Source of the DNA: an uncultured bacterium | Lineage (GTDB): Bacteria > Oederibacteriota > PGYV01 > CAWJRG01 | Reading direction: 5' to 3' | DNA: 64,000 nucleotides | Assembly: GCA_963845185.1 (NCBI GenBank) | Contig: CAWJRG010000010.1 | Span: 672,001 to 736,000, forward strand | Shown here: in pieces, positions 9,642-38,212 of the stretch | Layout: each line of letters opens with the position of its first letter | Numbering within the stretch: position 1 is the first letter of the stretch | Notes under the pieces: model-generated | What the model was told of the DNA's origin: nothing | Databases searched by the model: none | Seen by the model: only the letters and a program-made list of their open reading frames with translations | Made by a program: the position numbers and the translations under genes

Positions 9642-9737
9642 GCAAGAGTTTATTTTGCAAACCTAAGGGTGCAGCAAAATATTACTCTTGCATGCACCCG
9701 CTCAAGCCCGAGGCTACAAGCCGAGGGCAAGAGGTGC
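9642..9737 (-). repeat. Two-hairpin structured element, copy 1 (abuts phoU SD)
   Basis: GCACCTCTTGCCC..GGGCTTGAGCGGGTGC + GCAAGAGT-AA-TATTTTGC..GCAAAATA-A-ACTCTTGC. Confidence 0.8.
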
Positions 9738-9740
9738 TTA

Positions 9741-9900
9741 AATTCCGTTTACTTTGCCAAGCCGTCGAAGGCAGTCAAATAGTCCTGTGGACTATTTGGC
9801 GGGTAGTTACCATAAGTCATCATATAAAAGCTACCCAACAAAATCTTACGGAGTCTTGCACCCGCTCCAGCCCGAGGCTACAGCCGAGGGCAAGAGGTGC
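9741..9900 (-). repeat. Two-hairpin structured element, copy 2, with nested module B
   Basis: Same hairpin 1; hairpin 2 GACTCCGT-AA-GATTTTGT..GCAAAGTA-A-ACGGAATT enclosing GGGTAG..CTACCC + CAAATAGTCCACAGGACTATTTG. Confidence 0.8.
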
Positions 9901-9917
9901 TGATTATCTTGCCTTTA

Positions 9918-10721
9918 TCATCCAAACCTTCCTGTAATATAGTCCTCGGTAATTTTCTTTCCCGGGTTTGTGAACATCTTTGATGTAGTATCGTACTGCA
10001 TAATCTCTCCCAGCATGAAAAATGCGGTCATGTCCGCTATCCTTGCTGCCTGCTGCATGTTGTGCGTGACTATTACGATTGTATAATTTTTCTTAAGTTC
10101 TACTATCAGGTCCTCTATTTTTGAGGTTGACAAAGGGTCAAGCGACGCCGTGGGCTCATCCATCAAAATGACTTCCGGCTTTATCACAAGGCAGCGCGCT
10201 ATGCACAGCCTTTGCTGCTGGCCGCCTGAAAGGTCAAAAGCATTGCGTGACAAAATATTTTTTACCTCTTCCCACAACCCTGCTTCTTTCAGGCTTTGCT
10301 CGACTTTTGCCTCAAGCTCTGCCTGGTTTTTATGAAGCCTGTTTATCCTGAGCCCGTACGCCACGTTTTCGAAAATTGATTTTGGAAAAGGGTTTGGTTT
10401 CTGGAAAACCATACCTACCCTGCGCCTGAGCTGGGTAACGTCAATACCCTCATTGTATATGTTGTTTCCATCAAGGTTCAAATCCCCGTCCACGGTGAAA
10501 TGCTGTATAAGGTCGTTCATCCTGTTTATCGAGCGCAGAAAAGTTGACTTGCCGCACCCTGACGGGCCTATGATTGCCACCACGTTGTTTGCCTGTATCT
10601 GCAGATTTATATTTTTCAGCGCAGCCACCCCGTCGTAATAGGCGTTGAAATTTTTTGCCTCAATCAGCACAGTTTCAGTTTGAGCCGTTTCTTCAGGCGT
10701 TTCTGTTTTATTTTCATTCAT
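9918..10721 (-). CDS. pstB: Phosphate ABC transporter ATPase
   Basis: [40 protein letters not shown]; start MNENK at 10721 with GGGAG SD. Confidence 0.95.
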
Positions 10722-10736
10722 GGGTTTACTCCCTAT

Positions 10737-10832
10737 GACAGCGTTTGTTTTATCAAGCCGAAGGCGCTGGTAAAACATTACGCTGTCTTGCACCCGCTCA
10801 AGTCCGCAGCCAAAGCTGGGGACAAGCGGTGC
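10737..10832 (-). repeat. Two-hairpin structured element, copy 3 (abuts pstB SD)
   Basis: GCACCGCTTGTCC..GGACTTGAGCGGGTGC-AA-GACAGCGT-AA-TGTTTTA..TAAAACA-A-ACGCTGTC. Confidence 0.8.
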
Positions 10833-10877
10833 TTTCTATTATATTTTGTTCCTCAAAACTTTTTTTGTTCCGGAAAT

Positions 10878-11729
10878 TTACCATTTTCTTTCCTTCCTTA
10901 TTTTTGTCCTTACTATTATTGCGGACGCGTTGATGACAAGCACGAGCAGCAAAAGCACCAGCGCAGTGCCGTAAGCAATGCTTACCTGCTCGGGCCTGTT
11001 GCCTTCTGTCATGAGCGCGTAAATATGGTACGGCAGAGCCATTACTTCCGAGAGAAGAGACGTCGGCAGTTTTATTGTGTAAAACGTGGCAGCTGTCATA
11101 AGTATAGGCGCTGTCTCTCCTGCTGCCCTGCCTATGCTTAGTATGACTCCGGTCAATATGCCGGGCAGCGAATTCGGAAGCACTATTTTATAAACTGTCT
11201 GCCATTTTGTCGCGCCGAGCGCGAGTGATGCTTCCTTGAAAGTAAGCGGCACTGTAAGTATAGCCTCCTCTGATGTCCTTATTATCGTGGGCAGTATAAG
11301 CATGCCCAGCACAAGGCTTCCTGAAAGCAGGGAAACGCCAAACTCCATGAATTTCACAAAAACAGCCAGGCCAAAAAGCCCGAAAACTATCGAAGGTACG
11401 CCTGAAAGCGCATCTATGCCGACGCGTACAATCCTTACTGCCCTCCTGTTCCTGGCGTATTCCGTGAGCCATATTGCTGTCAATATCCCGAGAGGCACCG
11501 CGAAAATTACCGCGCCTATTGAAAGCAGGAAAGTTCCCATAATTGCCGGGAATATCCCGCCTTTTGTCATGCCGTCGCTCGGGAACTGGGTAAAAAACCC
11601 GAAACTCAATACCTTTATGCCTTTTGCCGCGATGAATAAAATTATTGTGCCTAAAAACACAAGGACAAAAAGCAGGCAAAGCCTTATAAAGAGAAAACCT
11701 AATGCCTGGGATATTTTCCTGTAATTCAT
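10878..11729 (-). CDS. pstA: Phosphate ABC transporter permease PstA
   Basis: GGIFPAIMGT, GVPSIVFGLFG, EASLALGATKWQT, GRAAGETAP. Confidence 0.95.
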   Translation of the reverse strand: MNYRKISQALGFLFIRLCLLFVLVFLGTIILFIAAKGIKVLSFGFFTQFPSDGMTKGGIFPAIMGTFLLSIGAVIFAVPLGILTAIWLTEYARNRRAVRIVRVGIDALSGVPSIVFGLFGLAVFVKFMEFGVSLLSGSLVLGMLILPTIIRTSEEAILTVPLTFKEASLALGATKWQTVYKIVLPNSLPGILTGVILSIGRAAGETAPILMTAATFYTIKLPTSLLSEVMALPYHIYALMTEGNRPEQVSIAYGTALVLLLLVLVINASAIIVRTKIRKERKW

Positions 11730-11730
11730 T

Positions 11731-12582
11731 TTATTTTGCCCTCACATATATTTCCGCAAGCAGGGAAAAAATCAGGTTGAATACAAAAAGTACTATGCCT
11801 ATGCCGAAGAGCGCGTGGTAGTGCATACTGCCGACCACGGCCTCGCCCATTTCAAGCGCTATCGAGGCGGTCATCGCCCTCATCGGCTCGAAAATCGTCC
11901 CGGGCATTTTTATGGCATTGCCTCCCACCATCAGCACCGTCATTGTCTCGCCCATTGTCCTGCTTACTCCGAGGATAATTGCCGTGAATATCCCTGACCT
12001 TGCCGCAGGTATAACCACCTTTATTATTGTTTCCCACTTGTTTGCTCCCAGCGCGTATGAAGCGTGCCTTAATTCCTTTGGTACGGCAGCTATCGCGTCC
12101 TCTGTAATGCTGGCAATAAGCGGCACTGCCATTACTGCCAGTATGAGCGCGGCAGTAAATCCGCACTGTCCCGTCGGCAAATGGAATACTTTCTGTACAA
12201 GCGGTGCGACAAATACTATCCCAAAAAACCCGAAAACAACCGATGGAACTCCTGCGAGTACTTCCATCACAGGCTTTATTATTTCCCTGGTCCTCGCGCC
12301 TGCCATTTCAGAAATATACACTGCGCTGCCTATGCCGAGCGGCAGGGCTATAAGTACTGCTGCCACGGTAATTACCCACGACGCGACAACCATGGTCATT
12401 ATGCCGAACTCGGGGTCTGCCGCAGTCGGCTGCCACTGGGAACCGAACAAAAATTTTAAAATGCCGTATCCTTTAAAAACCGGAAATCCTGCGAATAGGA
12501 GCGTCAGGGCAATGGCTCCAAGGAATATAAGGGACACCGAAGCAAATATTGGGAGCATTTTTTCTATGAAATTTTTTTTCAT
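11731..12582 (-). CDS. pstC: Phosphate ABC transporter permease PstC
   Basis: LAGVPSVVFGFFG, SYALGANKWET, RTMGETM, IALEMGEA; alternative start at 12600. Confidence 0.93.
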   Translation of the reverse strand: MKKNFIEKMLPIFASVSLIFLGAIALTLLFAGFPVFKGYGILKFLFGSQWQPTAADPEFGIMTMVVASWVITVAAVLIALPLGIGSAVYISEMAGARTREIIKPVMEVLAGVPSVVFGFFGIVFVAPLVQKVFHLPTGQCGFTAALILAVMAVPLIASITEDAIAAVPKELRHASYALGANKWETIIKVVIPAARSGIFTAIILGVSRTMGETMTVLMVGGNAIKMPGTIFEPMRAMTASIALEMGEAVVGSMHYHALFGIGIVLFVFNLIFSLLAEIYVRAK

Positions 12583-12727
12583 TGTTTTCCCTCTTTCCAT
12601 CGCCTTTATTTAATTGCAGGGACGGCCATAGGCCGTCCCAAAAATCTAACTTCGAAACAGCCTTTTTTGGCATGGGACGCTGCCAAAAAGGATGCTTCAT
12701 GGCGCATTACAAGTATATGAACCAACC

Positions 12728-12765
12728 TTTAAAAACATATTAAAATTGTGTTAATTTTGTGTTAA
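12728..12765 (-). promoter_or_regulatory. Pho-box-like direct repeats upstream of pstC
   Basis: TTAAC/TTAAT/TTAAA half-sites at 11-bp period (12761, 12750, 12739, 12728). Confidence 0.65.
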
Positions 12766-14300
12766 GTCGCCTTTTCAAAATTGACCTTTCTGCCGTAAAC
12801 CTCCTCAAAAAGGAACTTTTTCACATCCGCGCCCCATATGGCAATGTCAATATTGCTTTTTGACGAGTATTTTAGTATTAAGTTGACGGTATTCCTGCGG
12901 ATAACACATCTGACAAATTCGATTGCCGAGGAGTGCATCCTGTCCAGGCCGTCTGCTATCCTGAGTATTGCAGCCAGTTTCCTGACTTTTTCGCGGTCAT
13001 TGTCCGACAGATTTAAAAAGCCCGGGTGCTTCATTTTTGGGTGGCTTTTCCTGTGGTACCTGCTTATGTTTGCTATTATTTCTTTTTCGTTTTCGGTAAA
13101 CCCGAAAAGTTCGGCGTTCCTGATAAGGTAGTATGAGTGTATGTGGTGCTGTGAGTGGGAAAGCACCAGGCCTATGTCGTGAAGTATGGCGGCGTAGCGC
13201 AAATATTCCCGCTCCGCGTGCTTGAGCCTGTGCAAAGATTTCAACTGGTCGAAAATCTCAAGCGCAAGTTTTTCCGTCTGGAAAGCATGTTTTTCCTCAA
13301 GCCGGAAAGTCCTGCCAAGTGCTATCACGCTTTTATAACGCAGGTCTATGAACATGTGCGAATATTTACCCGGATATGCCCTTTGCATCGTGTCAAAAAT
13401 CAGGCCTTCCCTGAGCGCGTATTCCGAAACCTTTAATTCCTCAATATCAAACTGCCTGAATATCTCGCTTAGTATAATTATGCCGGATATTATTATGTCC
13501 GCCCGTTTTTTATTAAGCCCGGGAATCACAGCTATCTTTTCCGGGGTTCCGGCATGGAGTATCTTTTCAGCAACTTTTTCAAATTCCTTCCTTGTCAGGA
13601 CATTGTTTTCATTTTCATGGCTGCCTGAAAGCTTCCGCGCCACATTCAGTGCATTTATTATTGTGCCGGATGTGCCTATGACCTCGTCATACTTTATTTT
13701 TTTTACTGCCCTTACTATGGGGAACAGCATGCCTTTAACGAAACTGCGGCATTTTTTTACGGCCTTGCGCTTGAATTTATGTTCCGGGAAAAATTTTTCA
13801 GTCAGCCTCACCGTGCCTATTTTGAGGCTGTTGCCGTAAAAAATATTGTTCTTTTGCCCCACAAGGAATTCCGTGGAACCGCCGCCAATGTCGACCACCA
13901 GGATTTTCTTGTTGTAAACAGGCAGGGCGTGAAGCACTCCCTGGTAAATGAGCCGCGCTTCCTCGAATCCCGATATGACCTCTATGTCGATTCCTGTTTC
14001 CACTTTTACTTTTTTCAGGAAAAAATCCACGTTCAGCGCCTCGCGCACCACGCTTGTCCCCACTGCCCTGATCGAGGCCTTTTTTGCAGTACAGATTCTC
14101 TTGAATCGTTTCAGCGTGTCTACGGCTTTCGCCATAGCTTCGCCGCTTATAAATTTCATGTTCGCAGACCCGGAACCGAGTCTTATCATTTCTTTTTCCC
14201 TGTCTATTATGTAAAGCTTGCTGTTTTCAAGGTCAACCCTGGCTATTATCATATGGAATGAGTTTGTGCCGGCGTCTATTGCTGCAATGTGTTTGTTCAT
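12762..14300 (-). CDS. ppx: Exopolyphosphatase Ppx/GppA with HD domain
   Basis: IDAGTNSFHM, ISGFEEARL, DIGGGSTE, ALREG, LHDIG..HHIHSYY, LRIADGLD. Confidence 0.93.
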   Translation of the reverse strand: MNKHIAAIDAGTNSFHMIIARVDLENSKLYIIDREKEMIRLGSGSANMKFISGEAMAKAVDTLKRFKRICTAKKASIRAVGTSVVREALNVDFFLKKVKVETGIDIEVISGFEEARLIYQGVLHALPVYNKKILVVDIGGGSTEFLVGQKNNIFYGNSLKIGTVRLTEKFFPEHKFKRKAVKKCRSFVKGMLFPIVRAVKKIKYDEVIGTSGTIINALNVARKLSGSHENENNVLTRKEFEKVAEKILHAGTPEKIAVIPGLNKKRADIIISGIIILSEIFRQFDIEELKVSEYALREGLIFDTMQRAYPGKYSHMFIDLRYKSVIALGRTFRLEEKHAFQTEKLALEIFDQLKSLHRLKHAEREYLRYAAILHDIGLVLSHSQHHIHSYYLIRNAELFGFTENEKEIIANISRYHRKSHPKMKHPGFLNLSDNDREKVRKLAAILRIADGLDRMHSSAIEFVRCVIRRNTVNLILKYSSKSNIDIAIWGADVKKFLFEEVYGRKVNFEKAT

Positions 14301-15026
14301 TTATTCTGTGATCCCCAGAACCGACATTATGCCTTCCTTGAGTATTTTGTTGACATGGGAAAATTTTTTACCTGCGTCAACTACCTGGAACCCGTATTCT
14401 TTTGCCATTGAGTCGAATATTGAGATAACTTTTTTCTGGTAATGGATGAAGCTGTCGTAAAAATCCTCACCGAGCCTCATGTCCATGCCCGATTCCCAGA
14501 AATCCATCATTTTCTCCGTGCTTTTCCAGTACTCGTCTCCCAGGTTGTCGCTGTTTAATATGCGCGGGATGAGCGCCTTTACCCTTACGCGCATATAAAA
14601 AACCGCGTCAGGTACAAGCGCAAAACCGTATGATTTCAACAGCCACTCCCTGTCAATGCCCCTGGTGAGCGAGCGGGCAAAAGCAGTGTATATGTAACGG
14701 TCTGCCAGCACTATGTAACCCGCTTTCAGCGCAGGTATTATCTCGTGCTCGAGCCTGTCCGCAAAATCAGCCAGGTAAAGCAAACTGAAAGTATGTACAT
14801 TTAAATTCTGGCGTTCTTTTGCGTCCTGGACTGCCTTGCCGATAAAAGGCGAGCGTATCCAGCCGGTCACAGATACCGGATAACCCTTTACTTCGAGCCA
14901 CTCCTTAATGTCGCTTATCTGGGTGGAACGTCCAACACCGTCAGTGCCCTCTATCACAATCAGCTTGCCTGTTATGTCGCTCAAGTCAATTTTTGGCAGC
15001 GTTATCCCTGAAAAAGTCTTGATCAT
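14301..15026 (-). CDS. Thymidylate-kinase-like protein with degenerate P-loop (candidate PPK3-type regulatory subunit)
   Basis: LIVIEGTDGVGRST (Walker A K to R), LADRYIYTAFAR; overlaps its paralog. Confidence 0.75.
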   Translation of the reverse strand: MIKTFSGITLPKIDLSDITGKLIVIEGTDGVGRSTQISDIKEWLEVKGYPVSVTGWIRSPFIGKAVQDAKERQNLNVHTFSLLYLADFADRLEHEIIPALKAGYIVLADRYIYTAFARSLTRGIDREWLLKSYGFALVPDAVFYMRVRVKALIPRILNSDNLGDEYWKSTEKMMDFWESGMDMRLGEDFYDSFIHYQKKVISIFDSMAKEYGFQVVDAGKKFSHVNKILKEGIMSVLGITE

Positions 15027-15709
15027 ATTATGGGCTCCGGCACATAATTTTCGAGCACTGATTTTGTCATTTCGCGCACCAGATGCTGCTGGCTGTTTAT
15101 GCTCTGCGTCGCGTCAATGACATTCAGGCCGTACTCAGCGCATATCCTGTCATATTCCTCCAGTATTTTTCCCTGGAATATTTTGAAACTTTCCTCCGGG
15201 TCGTCGGAAAAGCCTATATCCATGCCTGCCTCGTAGTATTTCAGGCTCGGCCTTCCTATCATTATTCTTTTTATGGAAACATCCGTGTTAACCTTGAAAT
15301 ATAATGCGAGATTTGGTTTTATAGCAAAACCGTAAAGATCCTTGACCCACTCGCGGTCAACTCCCCTCACTGCGTCTCTGGCAAATGCAGTATATATGTA
15401 GCGGTCGGCAAGGACTATCATTCCTGCTTTTAACGGCGGCAAAATCAAATGGTTCAGCCTGTCTGCAAAATCAACAGCGTGCAAAATGCTGAATGTAGTC
15501 GGAGTAAGAAGATTTTTTTTCTTTCCTCTCCTTATAGTTTCGTTGACAAGGTCGGAAGAGTTCCACTCCGTGAAAAAAACCTGGTGCCCGAGGCTTTTGA
15601 GCCATTCCTGGAGCAGCCTGAGCTGCGTGGATTTTCCCGAGCCGTCTATGCCTTCAACTATTATTAGTTTTCCCGGATAAGGGTGCTGGTCAAGATATTT
15701 TCTTGGCAT
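15023..15709 (-). CDS. Thymidylate-kinase-like protein (candidate PPK3-type catalytic subunit)
   Basis: LIIVEGIDGSGKSTQ, TEWNSS, LADRYIYTAFARD, YYEAGMD. Confidence 0.8.
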   Translation of the reverse strand: MPRKYLDQHPYPGKLIIVEGIDGSGKSTQLRLLQEWLKSLGHQVFFTEWNSSDLVNETIRRGKKKNLLTPTTFSILHAVDFADRLNHLILPPLKAGMIVLADRYIYTAFARDAVRGVDREWVKDLYGFAIKPNLALYFKVNTDVSIKRIMIGRPSLKYYEAGMDIGFSDDPEESFKIFQGKILEEYDRICAEYGLNVIDATQSINSQQHLVREMTKSVLENYVPEPII

Positions 15710-15714
15710 TATTT

Positions 15715-16218
15715 TTACCTAATCGCGCGAAGCTGTTTGGGCTGCATGAGCCACACAAGCTTCGTGGTATTTTCAGGCGGCAGGCCGTCCATGTCAAGCC
15801 TAGCGACCGCGCCTTTTTTCAGGACAATTGAAATATTCATTGAGCCCAGCATAAACCCGATCATCACCGATAAGTCGGGCTCATGTCCCACAAGCAAAAT
15901 GCTGTTGCACGCCTTGTGCTCGGCTATTGTCAGGGCAAGCATTTTCATGCTTCCGCCAGGCGCGAGTTCCTTAATAACCTCGATTTTTTTCTTGAACCCG
16001 TATTCCTGCGCGACTATTATGGCAGTTTCAAATGCGCGCTTTAGCGGGCTTGAAAAAATGCACGCGATGTCAGGCACAATTTTTTTCAGTCCTTTTGCTG
16101 CCTTTGCCACCTTTTTTATGCCGTCTTCTGTGAGCGGCCTCTCTGAATCCCTGTCGCGGAAAAGCGGGATGTTCTTGTCCACGGCCGGACCGTGCCGCAT
16201 AAAATATAATCGGGTCAT
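15715..16218 (-). CDS. sixA: Phosphohistidine phosphatase SixA
   Basis: RHG, DSERPLT, SSPLKRAFETA, LVGHEPDL. Confidence 0.9.
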   Translation of the reverse strand: MTRLYFMRHGPAVDKNIPLFRDRDSERPLTEDGIKKVAKAAKGLKKIVPDIACIFSSPLKRAFETAIIVAQEYGFKKKIEVIKELAPGGSMKMLALTIAEHKACNSILLVGHEPDLSVMIGFMLGSMNISIVLKKGAVARLDMDGLPPENTTKLVWLMQPKQLRAIR

Positions 16219-16269
16219 GTTTTCACCTATTTTTGTAGTTAAATTATAAGATATGAGTATTGTGGAATT

Positions 16270-16296
16270 TTTAAGAAATAGTTAATTATTTGTTAA
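16270..16296 (-). promoter_or_regulatory. Pho-box-like repeats upstream of sixA
   Basis: TTAACAAATAA-TTAACTATTTC-TTAAA, 11-bp period. Confidence 0.6.
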
Positions 16297-16325
16297 AATT
16301 TTTGGACTGATAAGCGAGCTGTGGA

Positions 16326-16465
16326 GCCCCCCGCCTTCACAGGCGGGGCACCTTTAAAAAATTCTCATATGCTCCCTCCCCGGAGCGGTCATATATCCCA
16401 CCGGGATATATTCCTATCCCAGCCTGACTTCGGCTGAGCTCAGTCGAAGCCCTACCGGCGGGGAT
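16326..16465. repeat. Cluster of short REP-like palindromes
   Basis: CCCCGCCT-TCAC-AGGCGGGG, ATATATCCC-ACC-GGGATATAT, CTTCGGCTGAGCTCAGTCGAAG. Confidence 0.55.
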
Positions 16466-16524
16466 TTTCGCGGAGTGGGATTAAATGAAAATTTTTATAT
16501 ATTTTATGCCTTCATTGCCCCATC

Positions 16525-16569
16525 CTTACCACTTACCACTTACCACTTACTCCTACCCTTACCACTACC
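16525..16569. repeat. Heptamer tandem repeat (CTTACCA)n
   Basis: Three perfect and several degenerate units. Confidence 0.8.
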
Positions 16570-16874
16570 TTGGATGGCGCAGTTACATATGTTTCAGTCT
16601 TTTTTCCACTTGATACTTATAGGTTGTGGAGAAATAAGGGGGATGATTATGCGAATTGGGTTGGGCATAGTGCGTATATAGTATTTTATACGAAATTTGT
16701 TTTTAAGAGGTTTTTTCCAATGTTTATCATACAAATCTTTGGTTTAAAGGAATTTGTATAACATTTTATATGAAATTAGATTTTCATGATATATTTTGCC
16801 CGAATTCTGCTTTGGCCCCTATTTGCATCGGGATTAATTTTGTTCTCATCATATTGCTTCTACTTTGGCATTTC

Positions 16875-17042: not shown

Positions 17043-17146
17043 TATTTACTCCCAATTTTACTTAAATCTTAATTTTTCCCCCTTCCGCGAACACAACCTT
17101 TAATCAATCTTTTCTTCAGCAAACACTGAATTTTAATACTTCTAAT

Positions 17147-19120: not shown

Positions 19121-19200
19121 TAGGTCCCACCTGTATCTTGACTTACCTTATTTATAATTGCCTGCCATGTTCTTCCTTTCCTCATTCCAAATCCCGCATT

Positions 19201-21803: not shown

Positions 21804-21805
21804 TT

Positions 21806-22970: not shown

Positions 22971-23025
22971 TTTTACAAAAAAAACGGCGGCCTTTTCAGC
23001 CGCCGCCACATAAGGGAGGAAACAC
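22971..23025 (-). terminator. Terminator with C-rich 5' arm, duplicated at 23971
   Basis: CGGCGGCTGAAAAGGCCGCCG followed by T-tract, preceded by GTGTTTCCTCCCTTA. Confidence 0.7.
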
Positions 23026-23193
23026 GTGGTTAATCCCTGTATGTTACAATACCTCCCCTTTAGCAAGTGGAGGTAAATAGTCCAGTGGACTAACTAAATA
23101 GTCCGGTGGACTAGCTATCGGAGGTTTTACAGTCGCAAGGCAAACCTCCCCTGACCCCTCCTTGTTAAGAAGGGAAAAAAACAAACAGTGTTT

Positions 23194-23397
23194 TTAATCC
23201 AGATTATCCTCGTGTATTGCCCATTTGCCTTTTTCCAGGGCCTGGATATCAAGCCTTGTTTTATTGCAAACAGAACAAATCAGTACAGCCCGCTCTGCCG
23301 GCGGGTTAAAAGGCTTTGTACTGCCGCCGTAAATGGAACAGTTGAGCGAATAGATGTTGTGCTTTCCTTTGACAATCATGTGTTTTAAATCAGCCAT
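23194..23397 (-). CDS. Small hypothetical protein with CxxC
   Basis: GAGGTG SD; CSVC; coupled to the upstream gene. Confidence 0.65.
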   Translation of the reverse strand: MADLKHMIVKGKHNIYSLNCSIYGGSTKPFNPPAERAVLICSVCNKTRLDIQALEKGKWAIHEDNLD

Positions 23398-23408: not shown

Positions 23409-23594
23409 TCACAATCCGTATTTTTTTTTAATCACTTTTTCTGCCAGCAGCCAGTCCGAAAGCGCGTCGCCTGGCTGCTTTTTGGCCATCCTGTTCTTAT
23501 AGATTTCCTCGGCGTGCATGCAGATTTCGTACTGCAAATCTTCAAGGCTTGGTTTCTTCTGTGCTTTTTTCGTTTCTTTTGTTTCTTTTGCCAT
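23409..23594 (-). CDS. DUF2934-like small protein
   Basis: AAGGAGG SD; ICMHAEEIY..R..PGDALSDWLLAE resembles the DUF2934 AY..R..G...DW..AE pattern. Confidence 0.7.
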   Translation of the reverse strand: MAKETKETKKAQKKPSLEDLQYEICMHAEEIYKNRMAKKQPGDALSDWLLAEKVIKKKYGL

Positions 23595-23608: not shown

Positions 23609-23837
23609 GATTTCGTTTACTTTGTCAAGCCGTCATTATGGCAGTCGAATAGTCCTGTGGACTATTTGACGGGTAGTTCCCATAAATTATCATCATAAAA
23701 GCTACCCAGCAAAGTATTACAAGCTCCATGCTTCGCATGGACATGTCAGAGTAATGATTTTGCTTCGCTGTTGACGCTTGCAAAATCAAACTCTGTCAAG
23801 CCGCTCAAGTCCCGAGCTTGCGAGGGACAAGCGGTGC
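23609..23837 (-). repeat. Two-hairpin structured element, copy 4 (composite, one hairpin inverted, module B nested)
   Basis: GCACCGCTTGTCCC..GGGACTTGAGCGG; inverted hairpin 2 at 23745-23797; a second hairpin 2 with module B abutting the SD. Confidence 0.8.
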
Positions 23838-27719: not shown

Positions 27720-27736
27720 GTATTGCCTAAAACCTG

Positions 27737-30412: not shown

Positions 30413-31089
30413 TCTTCCAGCTTATAACCTACCCCTCTTATGTTTTTTACCAGTTTCCCGCCAACGCCTAGTTTTTCCCTAAGGTGCTTTATGTGCACGT
30501 CTATTGTCCTGTCCACCACTATTTTTTCGTCTCCCCACAGCAAGTCAAGAAGCTGCTCGCGCGAAAAAACCCTTCCTGGCTTTTCCATGAGTATTGTAAG
30601 TATCTTAAACTCGGTGGATGTCAGCTCGACTTTTTCGCCCTTTACGTATGCTTCAAACTTTTCAGGGTCTATTTTCAGTATTCCGCCGCGCTCGATGCCC
30701 GTGTTTTTTTCTTTTCTTTCTTTCCGCCGCAGCACTGCTTTTACCCGGGCAGTCAGCTCCCTGGGCGAAAACGGCTTTGGCACATAATCATCTGCGCCCA
30801 TTTCAAGCCCCAATACCCTGTCGGTTTCGTCTGTTTTTGCAGTAAGCATTATTATGGGTATGTCGCTGAACTTGTCGTCTTTTTTTATGATTTTGCATAC
30901 TTCGATGCCGTCCATGCCGGGCATCATTATGTCAAGAATTGCCAGGTCGGGCTTTGATTTGGAAAGGGATTTTATGAAGGAATTCCCGTTTGAAAATTCT
31001 TTTATTTTAAAACCTGCTTTTTTAAGGTTTACTGACACCAGTTCCCTTATATCGTCTTCGTCGTCAATTATTGCTATAAGGTTTTCCAT
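30409..31089 (-). CDS. phoB: OmpR-family response regulator, PhoB/PhoP type
   Basis: LDIMMPG, MLTAK, GADDY.PKPF, RTIDVHIKHLREKL, RGVGYK. Confidence 0.88.
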   Translation of the reverse strand: MENLIAIIDDEDDIRELVSVNLKKAGFKIKEFSNGNSFIKSLSKSKPDLAILDIMMPGMDGIEVCKIIKKDDKFSDIPIIMLTAKTDETDRVLGLEMGADDYVPKPFSPRELTARVKAVLRRKERKEKNTGIERGGILKIDPEKFEAYVKGEKVELTSTEFKILTILMEKPGRVFSREQLLDLLWGDEKIVVDRTIDVHIKHLREKLGVGGKLVKNIRGVGYKLEE

Positions 31090-31124
31090 AAGGCACCGCC
31101 TTTCCTGCATATTATACAATAAAT

Positions 31125-32000
31125 TTAGTTAATTATTTTTGTCTTTTTTGTTAATTTATTGTAAAGAAAAAGCAGTATGTTCAGTATTAAAAGTCCGGCA
31201 AAACCCGCAGCTCCGGTTACGCCTACGGTAAGGTCGTTCCCGCCTTTGATATACAACAGCGCGAAACCTGCAGAAGCGTTCAAAGTGCCGTGCATTATGG
31301 ATGTGGCTATAACCGAGCCTGTTTTTAGCCTAATAAAATGGAAAAGCGGCGACAAAAGCATGCACCACAGTACCATAAAAAGCACGCCGATTTTATGGTG
31401 CTGGAAGTAATTATGCCCCTGCAGTATTATGGGCGCGTGCCATATTCCCCAGAGAAAGCCCGTGTAAAGCGACGCCTTATAAAAGCCCTTGTCCTTGAGC
31501 TCATTGAATAAAAAACCCCTCCAGCCTGTTTCCTCGCCAAAGGCTGCCAGGGCATTTACGGTAATTCCTGCAATCAGGGCCTGCGGTATGGCTATAAAAA
31601 TGTAATTTACAGGCAGGCCCTGCATCTGGCTTTTTATCAAATCCATTTTTCCCTTTGTCATGATATTCTGGAACCTGTTTATGCCTGACATGTCAGGCGC
31701 AAACGCAGTGCCCGGAAAAAGCAGGCCAATGCCAAGAGAGATAAATGAGTATATCAAAGGCATGAGCCAGGCAACTATATACCAGCCGCTGAACCTGAAT
31801 CCTATGCCGATTTCCTTAAAGGATTCTTTGTAAACGGCCTTTTTTAAAATGACTGTGGTCAAAAGCGGCAAGAACATGTATACAACCGTAAGCAATGTCC
31901 CGACAGTGCTCCTGTAAGGGAAAATAATATAAATCAGCGAAAACAAATAGGAAATACCAAGCACAAGCACTGTGTAAGATAATATTCTGTTTTTAAACAT
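31125..32000 (-). CDS. CPBP/Abi family intramembrane metalloprotease
   Basis: GEETGWRG, WGIWHAP, MHGTLN. Confidence 0.88.
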   Translation of the reverse strand: MFKNRILSYTVLVLGISYLFSLIYIIFPYRSTVGTLLTVVYMFLPLLTTVILKKAVYKESFKEIGIGFRFSGWYIVAWLMPLIYSFISLGIGLLFPGTAFAPDMSGINRFQNIMTKGKMDLIKSQMQGLPVNYIFIAIPQALIAGITVNALAAFGEETGWRGFLFNELKDKGFYKASLYTGFLWGIWHAPIILQGHNYFQHHKIGVLFMVLWCMLLSPLFHFIRLKTGSVIATSIMHGTLNASAGFALLYIKGGNDLTVGVTGAAGFAGLLILNILLFLYNKLTKKTKIIN

Positions 32001-32057
32001 TGTTATTACCTCGAGGGTTATTGCTGAATAAGTTACCACTAACTTTTTTATAATACC

Positions 32058-32214
32058 CCTTCCCCCTCGACGGGGGAAGGCTGGGATGAGGGTGATGTAG
32101 CAGCTGAAAGTATTTTACTTTTCACCCATACTTTAATGCCATTTTGCCGCTGCTTCACCCTCTCCTTTTTCCTCTCCCATCGAGGGAGAGGATACCACCG
32201 ACTTTAGTCGGTGG
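32058..32214. repeat. Inverted REP pair (MITE-like) plus an extra palindrome
   Basis: CCTTCCCCCTCGACGGGGGAAGG..GGGTG ... CACCC..CCTCTCCC..GGGAGAGG; then CCACCGACTTTAGTCGGTGG. Confidence 0.75.
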
Positions 32215-32238
32215 ATTAGATTTTCATTAAACTCTCAA

Positions 32239-32925
32239 TTACAATTTCACGCTGTATATCATTATCCCGCCCGGGTCATATTCTATTTTTTTAATGGGCT
32301 TGCCGCTGCGGTATTCAATCTCGACTTTTAAATTGCCTGTTTCGTAATATGCCTTGAAACTGCCCTCTTCTTTTCCGTCCCTGTAATAAACTTCGCTTTT
32401 TAGAAACTTGTTTTTATAGTATGACCTGCTCATGCCGCTCATTTTGCCGAATACGTAGGGCAGCTCGAGCATTAAAACTCCGTCCCTGTAATACCATTTT
32501 TCAACGCCGTTTTTAATCCCCCTTTTGTAAGGTGTCTCGCTTTTAATCTCGCCTGACTCGTAATACTCTTTTTCGACGCCTTCCTTTATGCCTTCCACGT
32601 AAACGGTTTCAAACCACAACTCGCCTGTTTCATAAAATATTTTTTCAATGCCGTTGATTGTGCCTGATTCATAAGGCGCTTCCACCCATAAAACCCCGTT
32701 TTCATGATGCTGCTTCAGTATGCCTTCCTTTGGCATGCCGTCCGGCTCGTATTCAACCTGTTTTATCCTGAAATCCGTTTTATATTCTGTAACATTTTTC
32801 AAATTGCCGGACTCGTAGTACTCCCTTTCAATGCCGTCCTTTAAGTTATCTTTGTATGTGGTTTCTTTCCATAAAGCGCCGTTGTTGTAATATTCTTTCA
32901 TTATCCCGTTGAGTAGTTTAGCCAT
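32239..32925 (-). CDS. MORN-variant repeat protein (YwqK-like)
   Basis: Repeated G..KEYYESG.LK.E..Y units. Confidence 0.85.
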   Translation of the reverse strand: MAKLLNGIMKEYYNNGALWKETTYKDNLKDGIEREYYESGNLKNVTEYKTDFRIKQVEYEPDGMPKEGILKQHHENGVLWVEAPYESGTINGIEKIFYETGELWFETVYVEGIKEGVEKEYYESGEIKSETPYKRGIKNGVEKWYYRDGVLMLELPYVFGKMSGMSRSYYKNKFLKSEVYYRDGKEEGSFKAYYETGNLKVEIEYRSGKPIKKIEYDPGGIMIYSVKL

Positions 32926-32953
32926 GATTTTTTACCCTATTCCCTAAGTGAAG

Positions 32954-33028
32954 TGGAGGCGGCGATCGGAATTGAACCGATGAATAAGGGTTTTGCAGAC
33001 CCGTGCCTTACCACTTGGCTACGCCGCC
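32954..33028 (-). tRNA. tRNA-Cys (GCA)
   Basis: GGCGGCGTAGCCAAGTGGTAAGGC..CTGCAAA..GGTTCAATTCC..CGCCGCCTCCA; cloverleaf with encoded CCA. Confidence 0.97.
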
Positions 33029-33062
33029 TGTTGCGTTTTGAATGATTAAATATACTTCTAAA

Positions 33063-34322
33063 CTAAGTGCCTTCCTGCCATGAACTTAAATATTTTACCT
33101 GCTCCGGCGTAAGTTTCTCGAGCTTTACGCCCATTGACTTTAATTTCAGTTTCGCTATTTTCCTGTCTATATCTTCAGGGACATTATAAACTTTTTTCTG
33201 AAGTTTCTTGCCCATTTTAACCATGTATTCAGCGCCTTTTGCCTGGTTTGCAAAGCTCATATCCATGACCATTGCCGGGTGGCCTTCTGCAGCCGCGAGG
33301 TTTACCAGCCTGCCCTCTGCGAGCGCACTAATTGTCCTGCCGTTTTTAAGCTTGTATTCGACGACAAAAGCCCTGGGCACTTTTTTTGATACGGCAATTT
33401 TTTCAAGCGCCGACAAATCGATTTCCACGTTGAAATGGCCTGAGTTTGCCACTATTGCCCCGTCTTTCATTTTTAAGAAATGTTCTTTTCTTATTACGTT
33501 TATGTCTCCGGTAACCGTAACAAAAATATCTCCTTTGGCAGAAGCTTCAGACATGGGCATGACTGAATACCCGTCCATCCTTGCCTCGAGCGCTTTTATC
33601 GGGTCTATTTCAGTAACTATAACGTTTGCGCCAGCACCGGACGCCCTCATAGCCAGGCCTTTGCCGCACCAGCCGTAGCCTGCTATCACAAAATTCAGCC
33701 CCGCAATAAGCGAATTTGTGGCGCGTAAAATGCCGTCTATGGTCGACTGGCCCGTACCGTACCTGTTGTCAAAAAAATGTTTTGTCATTGCCTCGTTTAC
33801 CGCTATTATCGGGTAAGCAAGCACACCGTCTTTTTCCATTGCTTTTAACCTTATCACGCCTGTCGTTGTCTCTTCTGTGCCGCCTATTATTCCCGGAATG
33901 AGGTGCCTGTGTGTCTTGTGTATCACTGAAACTGTATCTGCGCCGTCGTCCATGGTCATGGTGGGCTTGTATGCCAGGGCCGAAAGTATATGAGAATAAT
34001 AAACCTTGTTTGACTCGCCTTTGATAGCGAACACGGGGATTTTGAAATGCTTGACAAGCGCTGCTGCCACGTCATCCTGCGTGGACAGCGGGTTAGACGC
34101 ACAGGCAACCACGTTTGCGCCTCCCTCTTTCAATGTCCACAATAGGTTTGCCGTTTCTGTGGTAATGTGAAGGCATGCCACAAGTGTCTGGCCGCTTAAA
34201 GGCTTGCTTTTCTTAAAATCCTGCCTTATAAGCCGCAGGACCGGCATGTTTTTTTCGCTCCATTCTATCCTTTTTTTTCCTGCTTCAGCAAGTTTTAAAT
34301 TTTTTACGTCGTATTTTTTCAT
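33063..34322 (-). CDS. ahcY: Adenosylhomocysteinase
   Basis: [46 protein letters not shown]. Confidence 0.97.
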
Positions 34323-34341
34323 TTATGCCTCCGTAAACTTT

Positions 34342-34481
34342 CCTTCCCCCTCGATGGGGGAAGGTCAGGATGGGGGTGAAGTAGCGGCTACACTCAAATA
34401 ATGAGCAATGCTATTTTTTAATAAATAGTTTTTACTGCTTCTTCACCCTCACCCTTTACCCTCTCCCGTCAAGGGAGAGGG
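34342..34481. repeat. Inverted REP pair (MITE-like), second copy
   Basis: CCTTCCCCCTCGATGGGGGAAGG..GGGGGTG ... CACCCTCACCC..CTCTCCC..GGGAGAGGG. Confidence 0.75.
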
Positions 34482-34514
34482 TATAAAATTGGTTAGTCTC
34501 CAAATTTAATATTT

Positions 34515-35723
34515 TTATTTTTTTGTTTTGCTTTTCTTTTTACTTTTTGCCTTTTTTGCTTTAACTTTTGGTTTTGCGCCGAAAGCTTCTTTTCTCATGG
34601 CAGCCGCCACGTCTGTGCTTTCCCATGTAAAATCCTTGTCATTTTTTCCAAAAGGGCCATAAGAAGCGGATTTTTTATATATCGGCCTGCGCAGGTTCAA
34701 TGTTTCCATTATTCCTTTTGGTGTAAGCTTGAAGTACCTTCTCACAAGCTCTGATATTTTTTTTTCGTCCACCTTGCCTGTGCCGAAAGTATTTATCATG
34801 ACAGACGTGGGCTCAGCCACTCCAATGGCGTAGGAAAGCTGAACCTCACACCTTTTTGCCAGTCCCGCGGCAACAATATTCTTTGCTATGTACCTTGCCA
34901 TGTAAGAAGCTGACCTGTCCACTTTCGACGGGTCTTTTCCGGAAAACGCACCGCCTCCGTGCCTGCCCATGCCTCCATAGGTGTCAACAATTATTTTTCT
35001 ACCCGTCACGCCTGTGTCTCCGAGCGGCCCGCCCACCTCAAACCTGCCTGTGGGGTTCACGAATATTTTTGTCTTTGCTGAAACCATTCTTTTTGGTATG
35101 ACAGCATCTATGACAAACTGCTTTATGTCTTTTTGTATTGTTTTAAGTTCCACGCCAGGGCCGTGCTGGGCTGAAACAACAATTGCTGTCACAGCCACAG
35201 GGTTCCCGTGCTTGTACGCGACCGATACTTGCGATTTCCCGTCAGGCCTTAAATAAGGAATAATACCCTTTTCCCTTACTTCCTGCAGGCGCTGTGTAAG
35301 CCTGTCCGCCAGTGTTATTGGCAGCGGCATGAATTCATCTGTCTCGTCAGACGCGTAACCGAACATCATTCCCTGGTCACCTGCGCCGTCCCTGTCCACG
35401 CCCATCGCGATATCGGGCGACTGCTGGCTTATGGATATTAAGACCTTACAGGTATCAGCACCTATGCCTATTTCAGGGCTTGTATAGCCTATTTCCCTGA
35501 TTGTGTCCCTTGCTATTTTTTCATAATCGACTTTTGCTTTTGTAGTGATTTCCCCTGCAACGACTACAAGCTCTTTTGCAAGCAGGGTCTCGCATGCCAC
35601 CCTTGAGTACGGGTCCTGCGCAAGGACCGCGTCAAGAACAGCATCTGAAACCTGGTCAGCGACCTTGTCGGGATGGCCCGATGTGACTGATTCTGATGTA
35701 AAAAGCCCTTCTTTTATTTCCAT
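34515..35723 (-). CDS. metK: S-adenosylmethionine synthetase
   Basis: [45 protein letters not shown]. Confidence 0.98.
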
Positions 35724-35737
35724 TTTTTGCCTCCTAA

Positions 35738-35832
35738 GAGTCCGTTGATTTTGCCAAGCGTCAACAGCGAAAGCAAAATCTTACGGAATCTTACACCCGC
35801 TCAAGTCCGAGTTCTATCCGGACAAGCGGTAT
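35738..35832 (-). repeat. Two-hairpin structured element, copy 5 (abuts metK SD)
   Basis: ATACCGCTTGTCC..GGACTTGAGCGGGTGT-AA-GATTCCGT-AA-GATTTTGC..GCAAAATC-A-ACGGACTC. Confidence 0.8.
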
Positions 35833-36007
35833 TTGATATCATGCTTTATTATTTACGCTAACTCTTAATTGATAATTTATATCATATATCTTATTGCTTT
35901 TCCATAAAAATATTATTGGAATTCCCTGCTTTTGAAGTGACTGGCTAAAAAATTATATTTGAATTTATTATTACGCAGTATAATAGCCTTTTTTTAGTTA
36001 ATTCCCG

Positions 36008-38035
36008 TTATTTCTTGCCTGTCGAAAGCCTGTCTGTCCTTTTTAACTTCCCTATTATATAACCTTTATCATCAATGCCTTCATGGTTAAATTCAAAAAC
36101 ATTATGCATCAATATGGTATCGCCTTCCATGCCTGTCAATTCTGATATATAAGTCACTTTTCTCGTGCCGTCTTTTAATCGGGACTGCTGGACAATTATG
36201 TCTATCGCGCTTTTTATCTGCTCCCTTATTGCTTTGACAGGCAAATCAACGCCTGCCATTAGGACCATGACTTCCATCCTGGAAAGCGCGTCCCTGGGTG
36301 AATTTGAATGAAGCGTTGTCATGGAACCCTCATGCCCGGTATTCATTGCCTGCAGCATGTCAAGAGTCTCGCCTCCTCGGCACTCTCCTACCACAATTCT
36401 GTCCGGCCTCATCCTTAATGCGTTCCTCACAAGGTCCCTTATTGTGACTTCTCCCCTGCCTTCTATATTTGCAGGCCTTGACTCAAGCCTGACAACATGT
36501 TCCTGGTTTAATTTTAATTCAGCCGAGTCCTCTATTGTCAATATCCTTTCGTCTTCCGGTATAAAAGACGACAGGACATTCAGCAGGGTTGTTTTGCCTG
36601 AGCCCGTGCCGCCTGATATAAGTATATTTTTTTTGCCGGCAACCGCGGCTTTTAAATACTCCGCGGCTTCAGGCGTAATACTCCCGTATTTCACAAGGTC
36701 GTCTGACGTGAGTTTCCTGTCTGAAAATTTTCTTATGGTCAGTACTGAACCGTCTATCGCGAGTGGAGGGATTATTGCGTTTACCCTTGAGCCGTCCGGC
36801 AGCCTCGCGTCTACATAAGGCTGGCTTTCGTCAATCCTCCTGCCGAGCGGCATGACAATCCTTTCGATTACCCTCCGCACGGTTTTCTCATCCGTGAATT
36901 TCTTGTCATAAAGAGTTAACCTGCCTTTTTTTTCGACATACACCTCATTGTATTTATTGACCATTATTTCACTTATTTCCCTGTCGACCAGCATATCCTC
37001 GATTATGCCAAGGCCAGTAACCTCGTTAAAAATATCTTTGGCAAGTACTTCCCTCGCGCTCCTGTCTGTTATGGTATTATCCATCCTGTCAAGTATGCTC
37101 CGTATTTTTGCCATTACGTTGTCAAACATCTGTTTTTTCTTTTCCGGATCGACCAGGGCATCCCTTTCCAGGTTCTTGATGTCAATCTCCTCGAACAATT
37201 CGTTATGTACGGCTTTTCTTAAGCTGCTGTATTTGTCGGTTTTTTCAACTTTTACGCTGCTTTTAACTGCAACCATTGCTGGTTCTTTTGATAGCAGCTG
37301 AGGTTCCGTTGTTTTTTCTTCAAGCGCAGTTTTATCAGCGTATTTTTCAAGCAGCTCAATATACGGCCTGGTAGACGGCATTGTTGCTATAATAGCCTCG
37401 ACAGATGCCTGCAATGATTTAATAAAGGCGCTTTTTTTGTTTTTATAATAATAAATCTCTCCCCTGCTGCCGCAGTCCTCGATTTCCTTTACAAAAGGCA
37501 GTATAGCCTGGACTTTTGTTTCCTTAAAGACTTCCTGCATATGTTCTATGATTATAAAATTATTTGTGTTTTTATTTACTATAATATTAAATAATGATGA
37601 TTGAAATTTTAAGTCAAGCAGCCTCTGCACGGTATACTGGGCATATTTTATATCAAGCGCGGTCATGGCAGTTGGTATTATAATTCTGTCGGATATTTCA
37701 AATATAATTTCCTCGGTTATCCCGTCAGTATCAATAATCAATATATCCAGTTTATCGTTGAACTTTTTAATTACTTCCCCAAATTTACTTTTGCCGGCCC
37801 ACAATAATGAAAATCTGTCTTTTGCCGGCAAATAATCATCAATATTTTTCTCCGCGCTGTATAAATGGCTTTTCTTCACGCCCGCATAAAGCTCAGTGTC
37901 ATATATTGCCTCGTTATAATCCAAAAAGCCGGTTTTTAATTTAAGCGCATCACTAAGTATTGCAGCAATATTAAGGCCTATTGTGGTTTTTCCTGTTCCT
38001 GATTTTTTATTTAGTAGTGTTATGATGTGCTTCAT
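36008..38035 (-). CDS. cpaF: Tad pilus ATPase CpaF/TadA fused to an N-terminal ParA/CpaE-like domain
   Basis: N-terminal KKSGTGKTT; C-terminal VDARLPDGSRVN, GGTGSGKTT, ALRMRPDRIVVGECRG, AMNTGH. Confidence 0.88.
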   Translation of the reverse strand: MKHIITLLNKKSGTGKTTIGLNIAAILSDALKLKTGFLDYNEAIYDTELYAGVKKSHLYSAEKNIDDYLPAKDRFSLLWAGKSKFGEVIKKFNDKLDILIIDTDGITEEIIFEISDRIIIPTAMTALDIKYAQYTVQRLLDLKFQSSLFNIIVNKNTNNFIIIEHMQEVFKETKVQAILPFVKEIEDCGSRGEIYYYKNKKSAFIKSLQASVEAIIATMPSTRPYIELLEKYADKTALEEKTTEPQLLSKEPAMVAVKSSVKVEKTDKYSSLRKAVHNELFEEIDIKNLERDALVDPEKKKQMFDNVMAKIRSILDRMDNTITDRSAREVLAKDIFNEVTGLGIIEDMLVDREISEIMVNKYNEVYVEKKGRLTLYDKKFTDEKTVRRVIERIVMPLGRRIDESQPYVDARLPDGSRVNAIIPPLAIDGSVLTIRKFSDRKLTSDDLVKYGSITPEAAEYLKAAVAGKKNILISGGTGSGKTTLLNVLSSFIPEDERILTIEDSAELKLNQEHVVRLESRPANIEGRGEVTIRDLVRNALRMRPDRIVVGECRGGETLDMLQAMNTGHEGSMTTLHSNSPRDALSRMEVMVLMAGVDLPVKAIREQIKSAIDIIVQQSRLKDGTRKVTYISELTGMEGDTILMHNVFEFNHEGIDDKGYIIGKLKRTDRLSTGKK

Positions 38036-38048
38036 GTTTTACCCCTAA

Positions 38049-38212
38049 GTAAGAATTTATTTTGCAAGCCCTCAAGGTGCAGCAAAATATTACTCTTGCT
38101 TGCACCAGCTCAAGTCTGAGGCCGCCAGGCTGAAAGTTAAATAGTACAGTGGACTATTTAACGGGTAGTTTCCATGGGTTAATATAATATGAAAACTACC
38201 CCAAAGCTGTGC
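38049..38212 (-). repeat. Two-hairpin structured element, copy 6 (abuts cpaF SD; module B nested in hairpin 1)
   Basis: GCACAGCTT..[module B]..GACTTGAGCTGGTGC-AA-GCAAGAGT-AA-TATTTTGC..GCAAAATA-A-ATTCTTAC. Confidence 0.8.

Follow-up and report, generated by a model that had tools for sequence, protein, structure and literature searches.

A dispersed two-hairpin element positioned at the edge of Shine-Dalgarno sequences in an uncultured Goldbacteria-type bacterium

Introduction

A stretch of 64,000 nt from an uncultured bacterium (positions 672,001 to 736,000 of contig CAWJRG010000010.1, assembly GCA_963845185.1; hereafter the window) carries six copies of a repeat made of two hairpins, placed immediately before the ribosome-binding sites (RBS) of five genes. 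The locus raises the question of why the same pair of hairpins should stand, in one orientation, at the Shine-Dalgarno (SD) sequences of unrelated genes, and whether it arrived there as a mobile element or is kept there as a regulatory RNA. The repeat is about 95 nt long and is named here the H1-H2 element, after hairpin 1 (H1) and hairpin 2 (H2). The host assembly (G000) comprises 3.50 Mb in 11 contigs (42% GC, 99.4% complete) and represents an uncultured Goldbacteria-type organism of FCPU426, a lineage equated with Goldbacteria (PMC7031533). Our preferred answer, to which we assign a probability of somewhat over one half (about 0.55), is that the H1-H2 element is a non-autonomous, structured mobile insertion that settles at the 5' edge of SD sequences and would be co-transcribed with the gene as part of its leader.

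Results and Discussion

Copies in the window and in the genome

All six copies in the window lie on the minus strand, as do the five genes that they precede. They occupy the positions and have the sense orientation described in an earlier account made from the letters of the DNA alone (the sequence-only reading). Three of them are intact H1-H2 units. Copy A (10737..10832; H1 10790-10832, linker AA 10788-10789, H2 10737-10787) is followed by ATA, the SD GGGAG and the start codon of pstB (ATG 10719-10721). Copy C (9642..9737; H1 9694-9737, H2 9642-9691) is followed by A, AGGAGG and the start of phoU (ATG 9626-9628), and copy B (35738..35832) by TT, AGGAGG and the start of metK (ATG 35721-35723). 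The other three are less regular. Copy D (9741..9900; H1 intact, nhmmer match 9802-9900, partial match to the covariance model described below) is the tandem upstream neighbour of copy C, with TAA between the two, and so also precedes phoU. Copy E (23609..23837; nhmmer match 23754-23837) is a composite that stops 2 nt before the AGGAGG of a 61-aa open reading frame (ORF; ATG 23592-23594). Copy F (38049..38212; nhmmer match 38050-38125) has an intact H2 (38049-38099) followed by TTAGGGG and the start (ATG 38033-38035) of a T2SSE (cpaF-like) ATPase gene. The proposal that H2 ends 1–2 nt before the A of an AGGAG or AGGGAG sequence held at all five loci. The products of four target genes were recognised by Pfam as PhoU, an ABC ATPase (pstB), MetK and a T2SSE ATPase (cpaF-like), in agreement with the sequence-only reading; its label of DUF2934 for the fifth could not be retained, as the 61-aa ORF (23409-23594) has no Pfam match at E ≤ 0.001.

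The 15-nt 3' half of H1 (up to three mismatches) occurs six times in the window, always on the minus strand, compared with 0.84 ± 0.87 times in shuffled windows, and none of 100 shuffles reached six. An nhmmer profile made from 104 seed copies recovers the same six places and, over the whole genome, 181 matches at E ≤ 1e-3. A covariance model (CM), R1, was made from 43 clean copies, three from the window and 40 from elsewhere in the genome, and returned 145 matches among the 150 candidates scored; copies A, C and B score 98.3, 86.7 and 85.6 bits. H1 is almost always joined to H2, with a gap of no more than 8 nt in 112 of 134 H1-H2 pairs. The copies are dispersed over all large contigs and stand before housekeeping genes such as metK, rplC, argG and atpB. 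Dispersed copies have a median nearest-neighbour identity of 0.87 and a mean pairwise identity of 0.665. A different arrangement is seen at C9:916578-917176 (L105), where at least six near-identical 100-nt copies are arrayed in tandem, followed by a copy with a different insert; the array is not directly docked at an SD.

No Rfam family matched the element, as had been suspected. At the Rfam gathering threshold the whole window gave a single tRNA only, and at E ≤ 1 there were no matches in 9500-11000. The same relaxed search of nine loci from related genomes returned a tRNA and two miRNA-model noise matches far below the cut-offs.

Structure of the element

The consensus of H1 is RYACC-N-CTT-GTCC, a variable distal stem-loop, and GGAC-TTG-AR-C-GGGTRY. 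A linker of 2–3 nt leads to H2, which consists of an 8-bp outer stem, an AA bulge, an 8–9-bp inner stem (ATRTTTTG.../...CAAAAYA), an apical part and a single A bulge on the returning strand. Between H2 and the SD there are 1–3 A/T bases. In the alignment of 43 copies, 87.1% of cells are paired, compared with 75.8% when partners are shuffled (none of 500 shuffles was as high) and 34–45% when partners are slid by 1–3 columns. Changes on both sides are found in 22 of 36 pairs, and in 12 of the 18 pairs of H2 alone. The compensatory changes in H2 are those predicted by the sequence-only reading, in which its sequence varies while pairing is kept, apart from one of the stem pairs given as an example, GATTCCGT/ACGGACTC, which contains a mismatch. 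The description of the unit as two hairpins was also sound, but the GCT/AGC pairs drawn within the H1 stem were not supported: columns 6-39 are unpaired in 20 of the 43 copies and columns 7-38 in 12, and H1 thus has a conserved internal loop, rather than a helix, at its centre.

A similar picture was obtained from 32 independent nearest-neighbour pairs of copies (mean identity 0.88), in which the change per site is 0.073 in paired and 0.148 in unpaired columns. Double changes at paired positions number 27 against 4.1 expected, and the pair is kept in 26 of the 27. Judged by this pattern of substitution, H1 and H2 are both maintained by selection. When copies A, C and B were folded together with SD and AUG they gave z-scores of -6.05, -4.87 and -4.38, and in the predicted folds of copies C and B the SD and AUG are unpaired. 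Attempts to choose the functional strand by folding energy or by G-U counts were not decisive, as the antisense strand folds better; G-U pairs number 189 in the sense and 114 in the antisense direction, with about half of them contributed by one invariant U-G of H1.

Two more specific structural proposals were rejected. K-turns require G-A/A-G pairs, and by inspection H1 lacks them. A coaxial stack between H2 and the SD/anti-SD helix, formed at the very 3' end of 16S rRNA, is unsupported: the 16S gene reads CCTCCTTTCT there, and the W-W-A junction lacks full complementarity to this tail.

Docking and orientation

The position of the element was measured from the 3' stem end to the nearest downstream start of an ORF of at least 60 aa. 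Among the 110 copies with an intact 3' end, such a start is found 4–17 nt past that end in 81 (mode 13), at 28–52 nt in six, and not within 60 nt in 23; an antisense control, measured outward from the other end, gave 7 of 110 starts in the 0–17 nt range. The GGAG/GAGG core is present in 75 of the 81 docked copies and begins 3 nt past the stem in 51 of these, 2 nt past it in 11 and 4 nt past it in 9 (standard deviation 0.74). The distance from the GGAG core to the start codon varies more (standard deviation 1.52). Copies such as those at C6:76378 and C9:532501 have AGGGAGGGAGC/AGGGATGGAGCGT followed by ATT in place of the usual start, and copies of this kind could precede short or non-canonically started ORFs missed by the 60-aa filter.

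Orientation was scored on a crude gene map. A co-oriented gene lies downstream of 160 of the 181 nhmmer matches, and between co-directional genes there are 136 sense and 10 antisense copies. Of the 21 cases in which the downstream gene appeared to be opposite, at least six are artefacts of the gene map, with SD and ATG present. Neither a random orientation nor a random distance to start codons was found, in keeping with the earlier proposal of an element tied to the SD. Fourteen of the 181 copies, and 388 of 2720 genes, run against the local majority gene strand, so that the copies are oriented by the gene rather than by the direction of replication.

The upstream boundary is sharp (A|RYACC), and the 5' flank is merely A/T-rich, with an information content of at most 0.26 bit at any position other than -1. 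No conserved promoter was found in this flank; good sigma-70-like promoters occur further upstream at varying distances. Sixteen of 57 docked copies start within 30 nt of the end of a preceding co-oriented gene and thus lie within operons. The docking distance is so narrow that selection acting on random insertions would not by itself suffice to explain it, and either the site is chosen or the edge of the SD belongs to the unit.

Forty docked genes were drawn at random from the 77 outside the window, and 31 of them have Pfam matches without a common theme. They include genes for a diaminopimelate/ornithine-type decarboxylase, argininosuccinate synthase, glycerol kinase, ribosomal protein L3, ATP synthase subunit a, a GH5 cellulase, a response regulator, NifU and PFK. 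A regulon was rejected on the grounds that the sampled genes belong to unrelated families.

Strictly sense copies that touch the SD also suit a second explanation, which we regard as possible although doubtful. In this case H1-H2 would be a functional RNA module bound by a conserved protein, the leader on the SD side controlling translation or mRNA stability in cis, and mobility would be only the means by which a Csr-like post-transcriptional network had spread. Conservation of the H1 internal loop in three families, and purifying selection on the structure, speak for it. On the other hand, the docked genes have no shared function, copies are not conserved at orthologous genes (see below), and no protein that binds the module was found.

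Empty sites

Presence and absence of the element at orthologous positions could be compared most closely in L108, 6.6 kb of a metagenome contig that covers the region of the pst copies A, C and D and encodes a PhoU protein 93% identical to that of the window. Neither the pstA-pstB nor the pstB-phoU junction of L108 contains an element, so that copies A, C and D are all absent, and the CM found no match in L108-L115 at E ≤ 0.1. The SD regions themselves are homologous, both upstream of pstB (AAAGGGAGTGAACCTATG vs ATAGGGAGTAAACCCATG) and upstream of phoU (CAGGAGGGAAATAATG vs AAGGAGGAAAATAATG), and the empty sites carry the same SD variants as the filled ones, including the uncommon GGGAGT that precedes pstB. 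On the 5' side of the insertion point, the pstA-pstB spacer is similar in length (51 vs 45 nt). Empty orthologous sites, which the sequence-only reading had suggested looking for, therefore exist at two junctions, and each has kept its own SD. At metK, the element is absent from all 24 loci examined from 23 relatives of the same order (CM, E ≤ 1), and the locus of the host genome is the only one with a match. A gene-specific cis-regulator, such as a metK leader or riboswitch, was rejected on the basis of the metK loci and the two empty pst junctions.

The two junctions and the metK loci give direct support to the suggestion of a non-autonomous element that targets the SD, and mobility of H1-H2 is supported by these few comparisons of sequence. 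The tandem array described above and the nested insertions of a second module (see below) point in the same direction. On the preferred reading, copies would have been inserted in the sense direction at the 5' edge of the gene's own SD, with the stem end 3 nt from GGAG. Each copy would be located between the promoter, or the preceding cistron, and the SD, and from this position we infer that its transcript forms the final ~95 nt of the leader. The internal loop of H1, which is invariant (ACCNCTTGTC / GACTTGARCGGGT), would be the recognition site of a putative trans-acting protein, which could be a mobilising enzyme, an RNA-binding protein, or both. As RNA, the upstream leader would be locked into two autonomous hairpins with the SD and AUG single-stranded; with such a structure, insertions should be tolerated or mildly useful, the element possibly acting as an insulator or as a 5' stabiliser.

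Distribution and a reversed placement in a sister family

The CM matched 10 of 30 relatives, every one of them in the order of the host (families f2, f4, f9 and f10), and none of seven genomes from elsewhere in the phylum. Among the species genomes compared, the host is the sole member of its family. The matches in f4 and some of those in f10 (G003, G021) are H2-only hairpins. In G001 (f2) two copies are docked at SDs as in the host genome, and three families of the order share the conserved internal loop of H1. The exact H1 pattern matches records named 'candidate division FCPU426 bacterium' and a few metagenome-assembled genomes that correspond to these relatives; scattered matches in Actinomycetota and other groups may be due to chance. 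On present sequences the H1-H2 family appears to be confined to a few families of one order of FCPU426 (Goldbacteria). At one locus of G003 (L047, contig C117, 1447-1724), two H2-only hairpins have a copy of the final ~78 nt of a gene on either side, and the insertion thus appears to have duplicated the 3' end of that gene.

Four genomes of f10 (G014, G019, G020 and G023) carry H1-H2 units that are not followed by an SD. These copies are followed by 5–11 A-rich bases and then by a GC-rich hairpin that differs between copies, and they are preceded by a TATTATAWT-like box that resembles a -10 promoter element and touches the 5' end of the unit. Both neighbouring genes are on the opposite strand at 13 of 15 loci, and at eight of these the end of the converging gene is 52–71 nt away. 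With the gene end so near, the GC-rich hairpin is probably its terminator, and the A-run the T-run of that terminator as it appears on the opposite strand. By our own reading, a T-run is also present on the element strand in about 12 of 19 copies. A CUCCUC-like anti-SD motif is exposed in the apical part of H2 in 11–12 of 15 f10 copies, and is not present in the copies of the host genome. A locus between radC-like and TPR genes (L042, L044 and L046, from G014, G020 and G019) is common to two genera, and there an extra 5' hairpin, one or two H1-H2 units and a shared terminator-like hairpin (GGCAGGCAC...GCCCGCC) are found.

The f10 copies may be stand-alone small-RNA genes that borrow bidirectional terminators, or insertions next to terminators; both fit the observations. 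For the functional RNA module considered above they offer a further role, in which a stand-alone small RNA would act in trans by titrating the same protein or by pairing with SDs. The terminator hairpin, the TATTATAWT box, the conservation of the radC-TPR locus in two genera and the CUCCUC-like motif all favour such a role. Other details speak against it: the long T-run of the f10 terminators is on the strand of the convergent gene, and the terminators thus belong to that gene; the -10-like box stands nearer to the 5' end than the usual geometry of promoters and start sites would allow; and the copies of the host genome are without the anti-SD motif.

Origin and mobilisation

Several observations weigh against an inserted, co-transcribed element as proposed here. 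A gain of the pst copies in the host lineage is indistinguishable from precise loss in the lineage of L108, and the empty phoU site of L108, TGCAAAACAAAAAC, resembles the 3' arm of H2. Because the dispersed copies are old (median identity 0.87), mobility has to be deduced from the two empty junctions and one order-wide absence. The element has no terminal inverted repeats (TIR), its 5' end (RYACCNCTTG) and 3' end (AAACNNNNNNC) not being inverted copies of each other, and no consistent target site duplication (TSD) of 2–5 nt was found at any offset, the best 2-mers numbering 28 against 18.4 expected. No autonomous form of the type H1...ORF...H2 is present in the host genome, where the nine H1-H2 pairs separated by over 300 nt have either unrelated genes or no gene between them. 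A mobilising enzyme was not found either: there are no matches to the Y1 transposase family (PF01797) in the host genome at 99.4% completeness. The antisense strand of the element is more stable by 2.9 kcal/mol on average, and the antisense placement of the f10 copies (13 of 15 loci) is left unexplained by a rule of SD targeting. Finally, the 3–5 nt after the stem are co-inherited with the H2 subfamily.

The last point concerns the ownership of the SD. Over the 10 nt after the stem, identity within H2 subfamilies is 5.58/10 compared with 5.09 when permuted, a value reached in 4 of 2000 permutations, and nearest-neighbour pairs show extra identity at positions +1 to +5, with none beyond and none at -1 to -8. 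Some of the SD edge may therefore move along with the element, and the alternative put forward in the sequence-only reading, that the element carries an SD, is borne out for the first 3–5 nt after the stem and not beyond. In our reading the unit probably ends 3–5 nt past the stem and joins the host sequence at the first purines of the host SD.

This co-inheritance also raises the prospect that H1-H2 is a duplicated 5'-untranslated cassette with its own RBS that has spread through recombination or gene conversion, the 3' crossover falling within the SD. There is a precedent for such an arrangement in Neisseria (REP2) and Borrelia (IR), whose repeats are described as directly upstream of genes and as having two stem-loops and an RBS (PMC3184786). 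We consider this unlikely. The extra identity ends at about +5 and does not reach the start codon, there is no conserved upstream promoter, and the 5' boundary is sharp. Moreover, the empty sites of L108 share SD variants with the filled sites, as with GGGAGT at pstB, and the similar length of the pstA-pstB spacer is that expected of a simple insertion.

A more familiar route would be movement as single-stranded DNA by a Y1 HUH transposase (RAYT or TnpA), the H1-H2 unit then being a hairpin of the repetitive extragenic palindromic (REP) or bacterial interspersed mosaic element (BIME) type, or a palindrome-associated transposable element (PATE) derived from IS200/IS605. The two share with H1-H2 the hairpins with conserved unpaired bases, the lack of TIR and TSD, and the occurrence of mosaics, nested modules and tandem clusters; the absence of TIR and of target duplication is a criterion for PATEs. 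Homologues of Y1_Tnp are present in 14 of the 23 same-order relatives, including the element carriers G001, G014 and G019. Even so, this origin seems very improbable. The host genome has the most copies of the element and no Y1_Tnp gene, in a search whose control was positive in 6 of 14 known genomes. At 12 Y1 loci of relatives no gene adjoins an H1-H2 unit, the single CM match being 2.8 kb away on L201, and the genes (~325 aa) are flanked by inverted hairpins of their own that are different from those of the element. At L202-L212 (G001, G004, G007, G014, G019 and G021) these flanking hairpins are of the GGTGTCAGG/CCTGACACC type, and the ~325-aa proteins have an N-terminal Y1-transposase domain and a C-terminal part that is DnaA-C-like by eye. 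No link to REP/RAYT systems was found. REPs are short GC-rich palindromes located mostly downstream of genes, at their 3' ends, and often in inverted pairs; H1-H2, in contrast, is ~95 nt long, consists of two unlike hairpins and lies sense at the 5' ends of genes, with a 136:10 bias of orientation unlike that of REP pairs. A PATE has a TnpA (Y1) gene available and a fixed target of 4–5 nt directly 5' of its left end, and no such target was found in the 5' flank of the copies.

Other mobile elements of the host genome were inspected as possible partners. Two families of DDE insertion sequences (IS) of ~1.65 kb (DUF772 + DDE_Tnp_1_6; for example C10:60633-62285 and C10:342119-343780) are present in ~14–17 copies each, and an rve_3-type IS in 5–6 copies. 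There are also six identical group II introns (C9:700695, C9:811636, C9:845477, C10:383780, C10:832145 and C11:62007), identified by RVT_1 and by the Rfam models group-II-D1D4-6 and Intron_gpII; among the 23 same-order relatives a reverse transcriptase was found in one. At the 10 loci checked, neither the DDE and rve-type IS nor the group II introns have H1 or H2 inside or adjoining them. A DDE-derived miniature inverted-repeat transposable element was rejected, given the lack of TIR and TSD and of H1/H2 sequence in the two abundant DDE families. An integron attC site was also rejected: attC sites have the cores RYYYAAC ... GTTRRRY and their cassettes are arrayed beside the integrase, and by inspection neither hairpin carries R''/R' cores and the copies are dispersed; the integron integrase itself was not searched for.

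The insertional and regulatory views can also be combined, in a form that we put forward tentatively and think rather unlikely. A conserved protein that reads the H1 loop would place copies at SD edges or at f10 terminators, and the module would then act at the RNA level, in cis as a leader that governs translation or mRNA lifetime and in trans as a stand-alone small RNA, so that a homing element would have built a lineage-wide post-transcriptional layer. In a variant of this joint proposal, a small-RNA gene might be copied in the manner of short interspersed nuclear elements by the reverse transcriptase of the six group II introns.

Comparison with known systems

The nearest analogues are the REP2 repeats of Neisseria and IR-A/IR-B of Borrelia plasmids, which are likewise dispersed sequences of ~100–180 nt found sense and upstream of unrelated ORFs, with two internal stem-loops and no TIR, but which contain promoter, RBS and ATG and number ~25 copies (PMC3184786). 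H1-H2 differs in having no promoter and no ATG, in including at most the first 3–5 nt of the SD edge while the host SD is kept, and in its ~150–180 copies with a covarying H2. The BOX elements of Streptococcus pneumoniae, ERIC/IRU, Correia and bcr1 of the Bacillus cereus group are listed with their general properties in the same source (PMC3184786). Like H1-H2, BOX, ERIC/IRU of enterobacteria, Correia of Neisseria and bcr1 are small, non-coding, modular or mosaic hairpin repeats; they are carried on neighbouring mRNAs, as H1-H2 would be. To our knowledge, none of them has been described as docking ~3 nt from an SD. Correia and ERIC elements have TIRs and occur in both orientations, unlike H1-H2 with its 136:10 sense bias and lack of TIR or TSD. 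Similar in placement are the TAACTGA heptamer repeats of marine Beggiatoaceae, of which ~169 sets, mostly in forward orientation, lie directly upstream of the start codons of unrelated genes; their proposed role is in translation, and an origin as mobile elements has been discussed (PMC4679880). Those repeats are unstructured direct repeats of 7 nt that overlap or replace the RBS (PMC4679880), whereas H1-H2 is structured, is 95 nt long and ends just short of an intact SD.

A limited search of the open-access literature found no description of the H1-H2 family, and the words 'intergenic' and 'noncoding' do not occur in the Goldbacteria paper (PMC7031533). The feature is real and undescribed; it belongs among the dispersed structured intergenic repeats, and its precise docking at the SD edge is the unusual part. 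For a landing at a fixed 3 nt before the RBS of ~80–100 unrelated genes, with the host SD intact, no printed precedent was found, and we know of no small structured repeat that behaves in this way. If the targeting is real, some machinery would have to read SDs, whether as DNA or as RNA, and the choice of target would follow a new principle. Should the module act as RNA, one leader would be common to ~3% of the genes of the organism, as a natural analogue of the synthetic insulators of RBSs, and might provide a handle on gene expression in an uncultured candidate phylum. In practical terms, the 3' end of the element points to true start codons and could serve as a marker in annotation.

Nested modules

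The irregular copies of the window contain a second repeat, module B, nested in the loops of H1 or H2 and present on the minus strand at 9774-9836, 23644-23707 and 38136-38202. It consists of two hairpins, GGGTAG...CTACCC followed by GTCAAATAGTCC-ACA-GGACTATTTGAC, and is 63–67 nt long in the window copies. About 45 copies of module B occur genome-wide, and in a few places it stands alone, directly 5' of an SD. In copy D, the H2 loop is broken by the 63-nt module B at 9774-9836. Copy E combines an H1-H2 unit (~23745-23837), in which the 3' base of H1 is degenerate, with a small hairpin and with a further H2 that contains module B (23644-23707). In copy F, module B (38136-38202) sits within the 5' half of H1. 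A further mosaic of short hairpins is found on the minus strand at 23000-23190, downstream of a 67-aa ORF (23194-23397); among its parts are two units in tandem that resemble the second hairpin of module B, and a terminator lies at its end.

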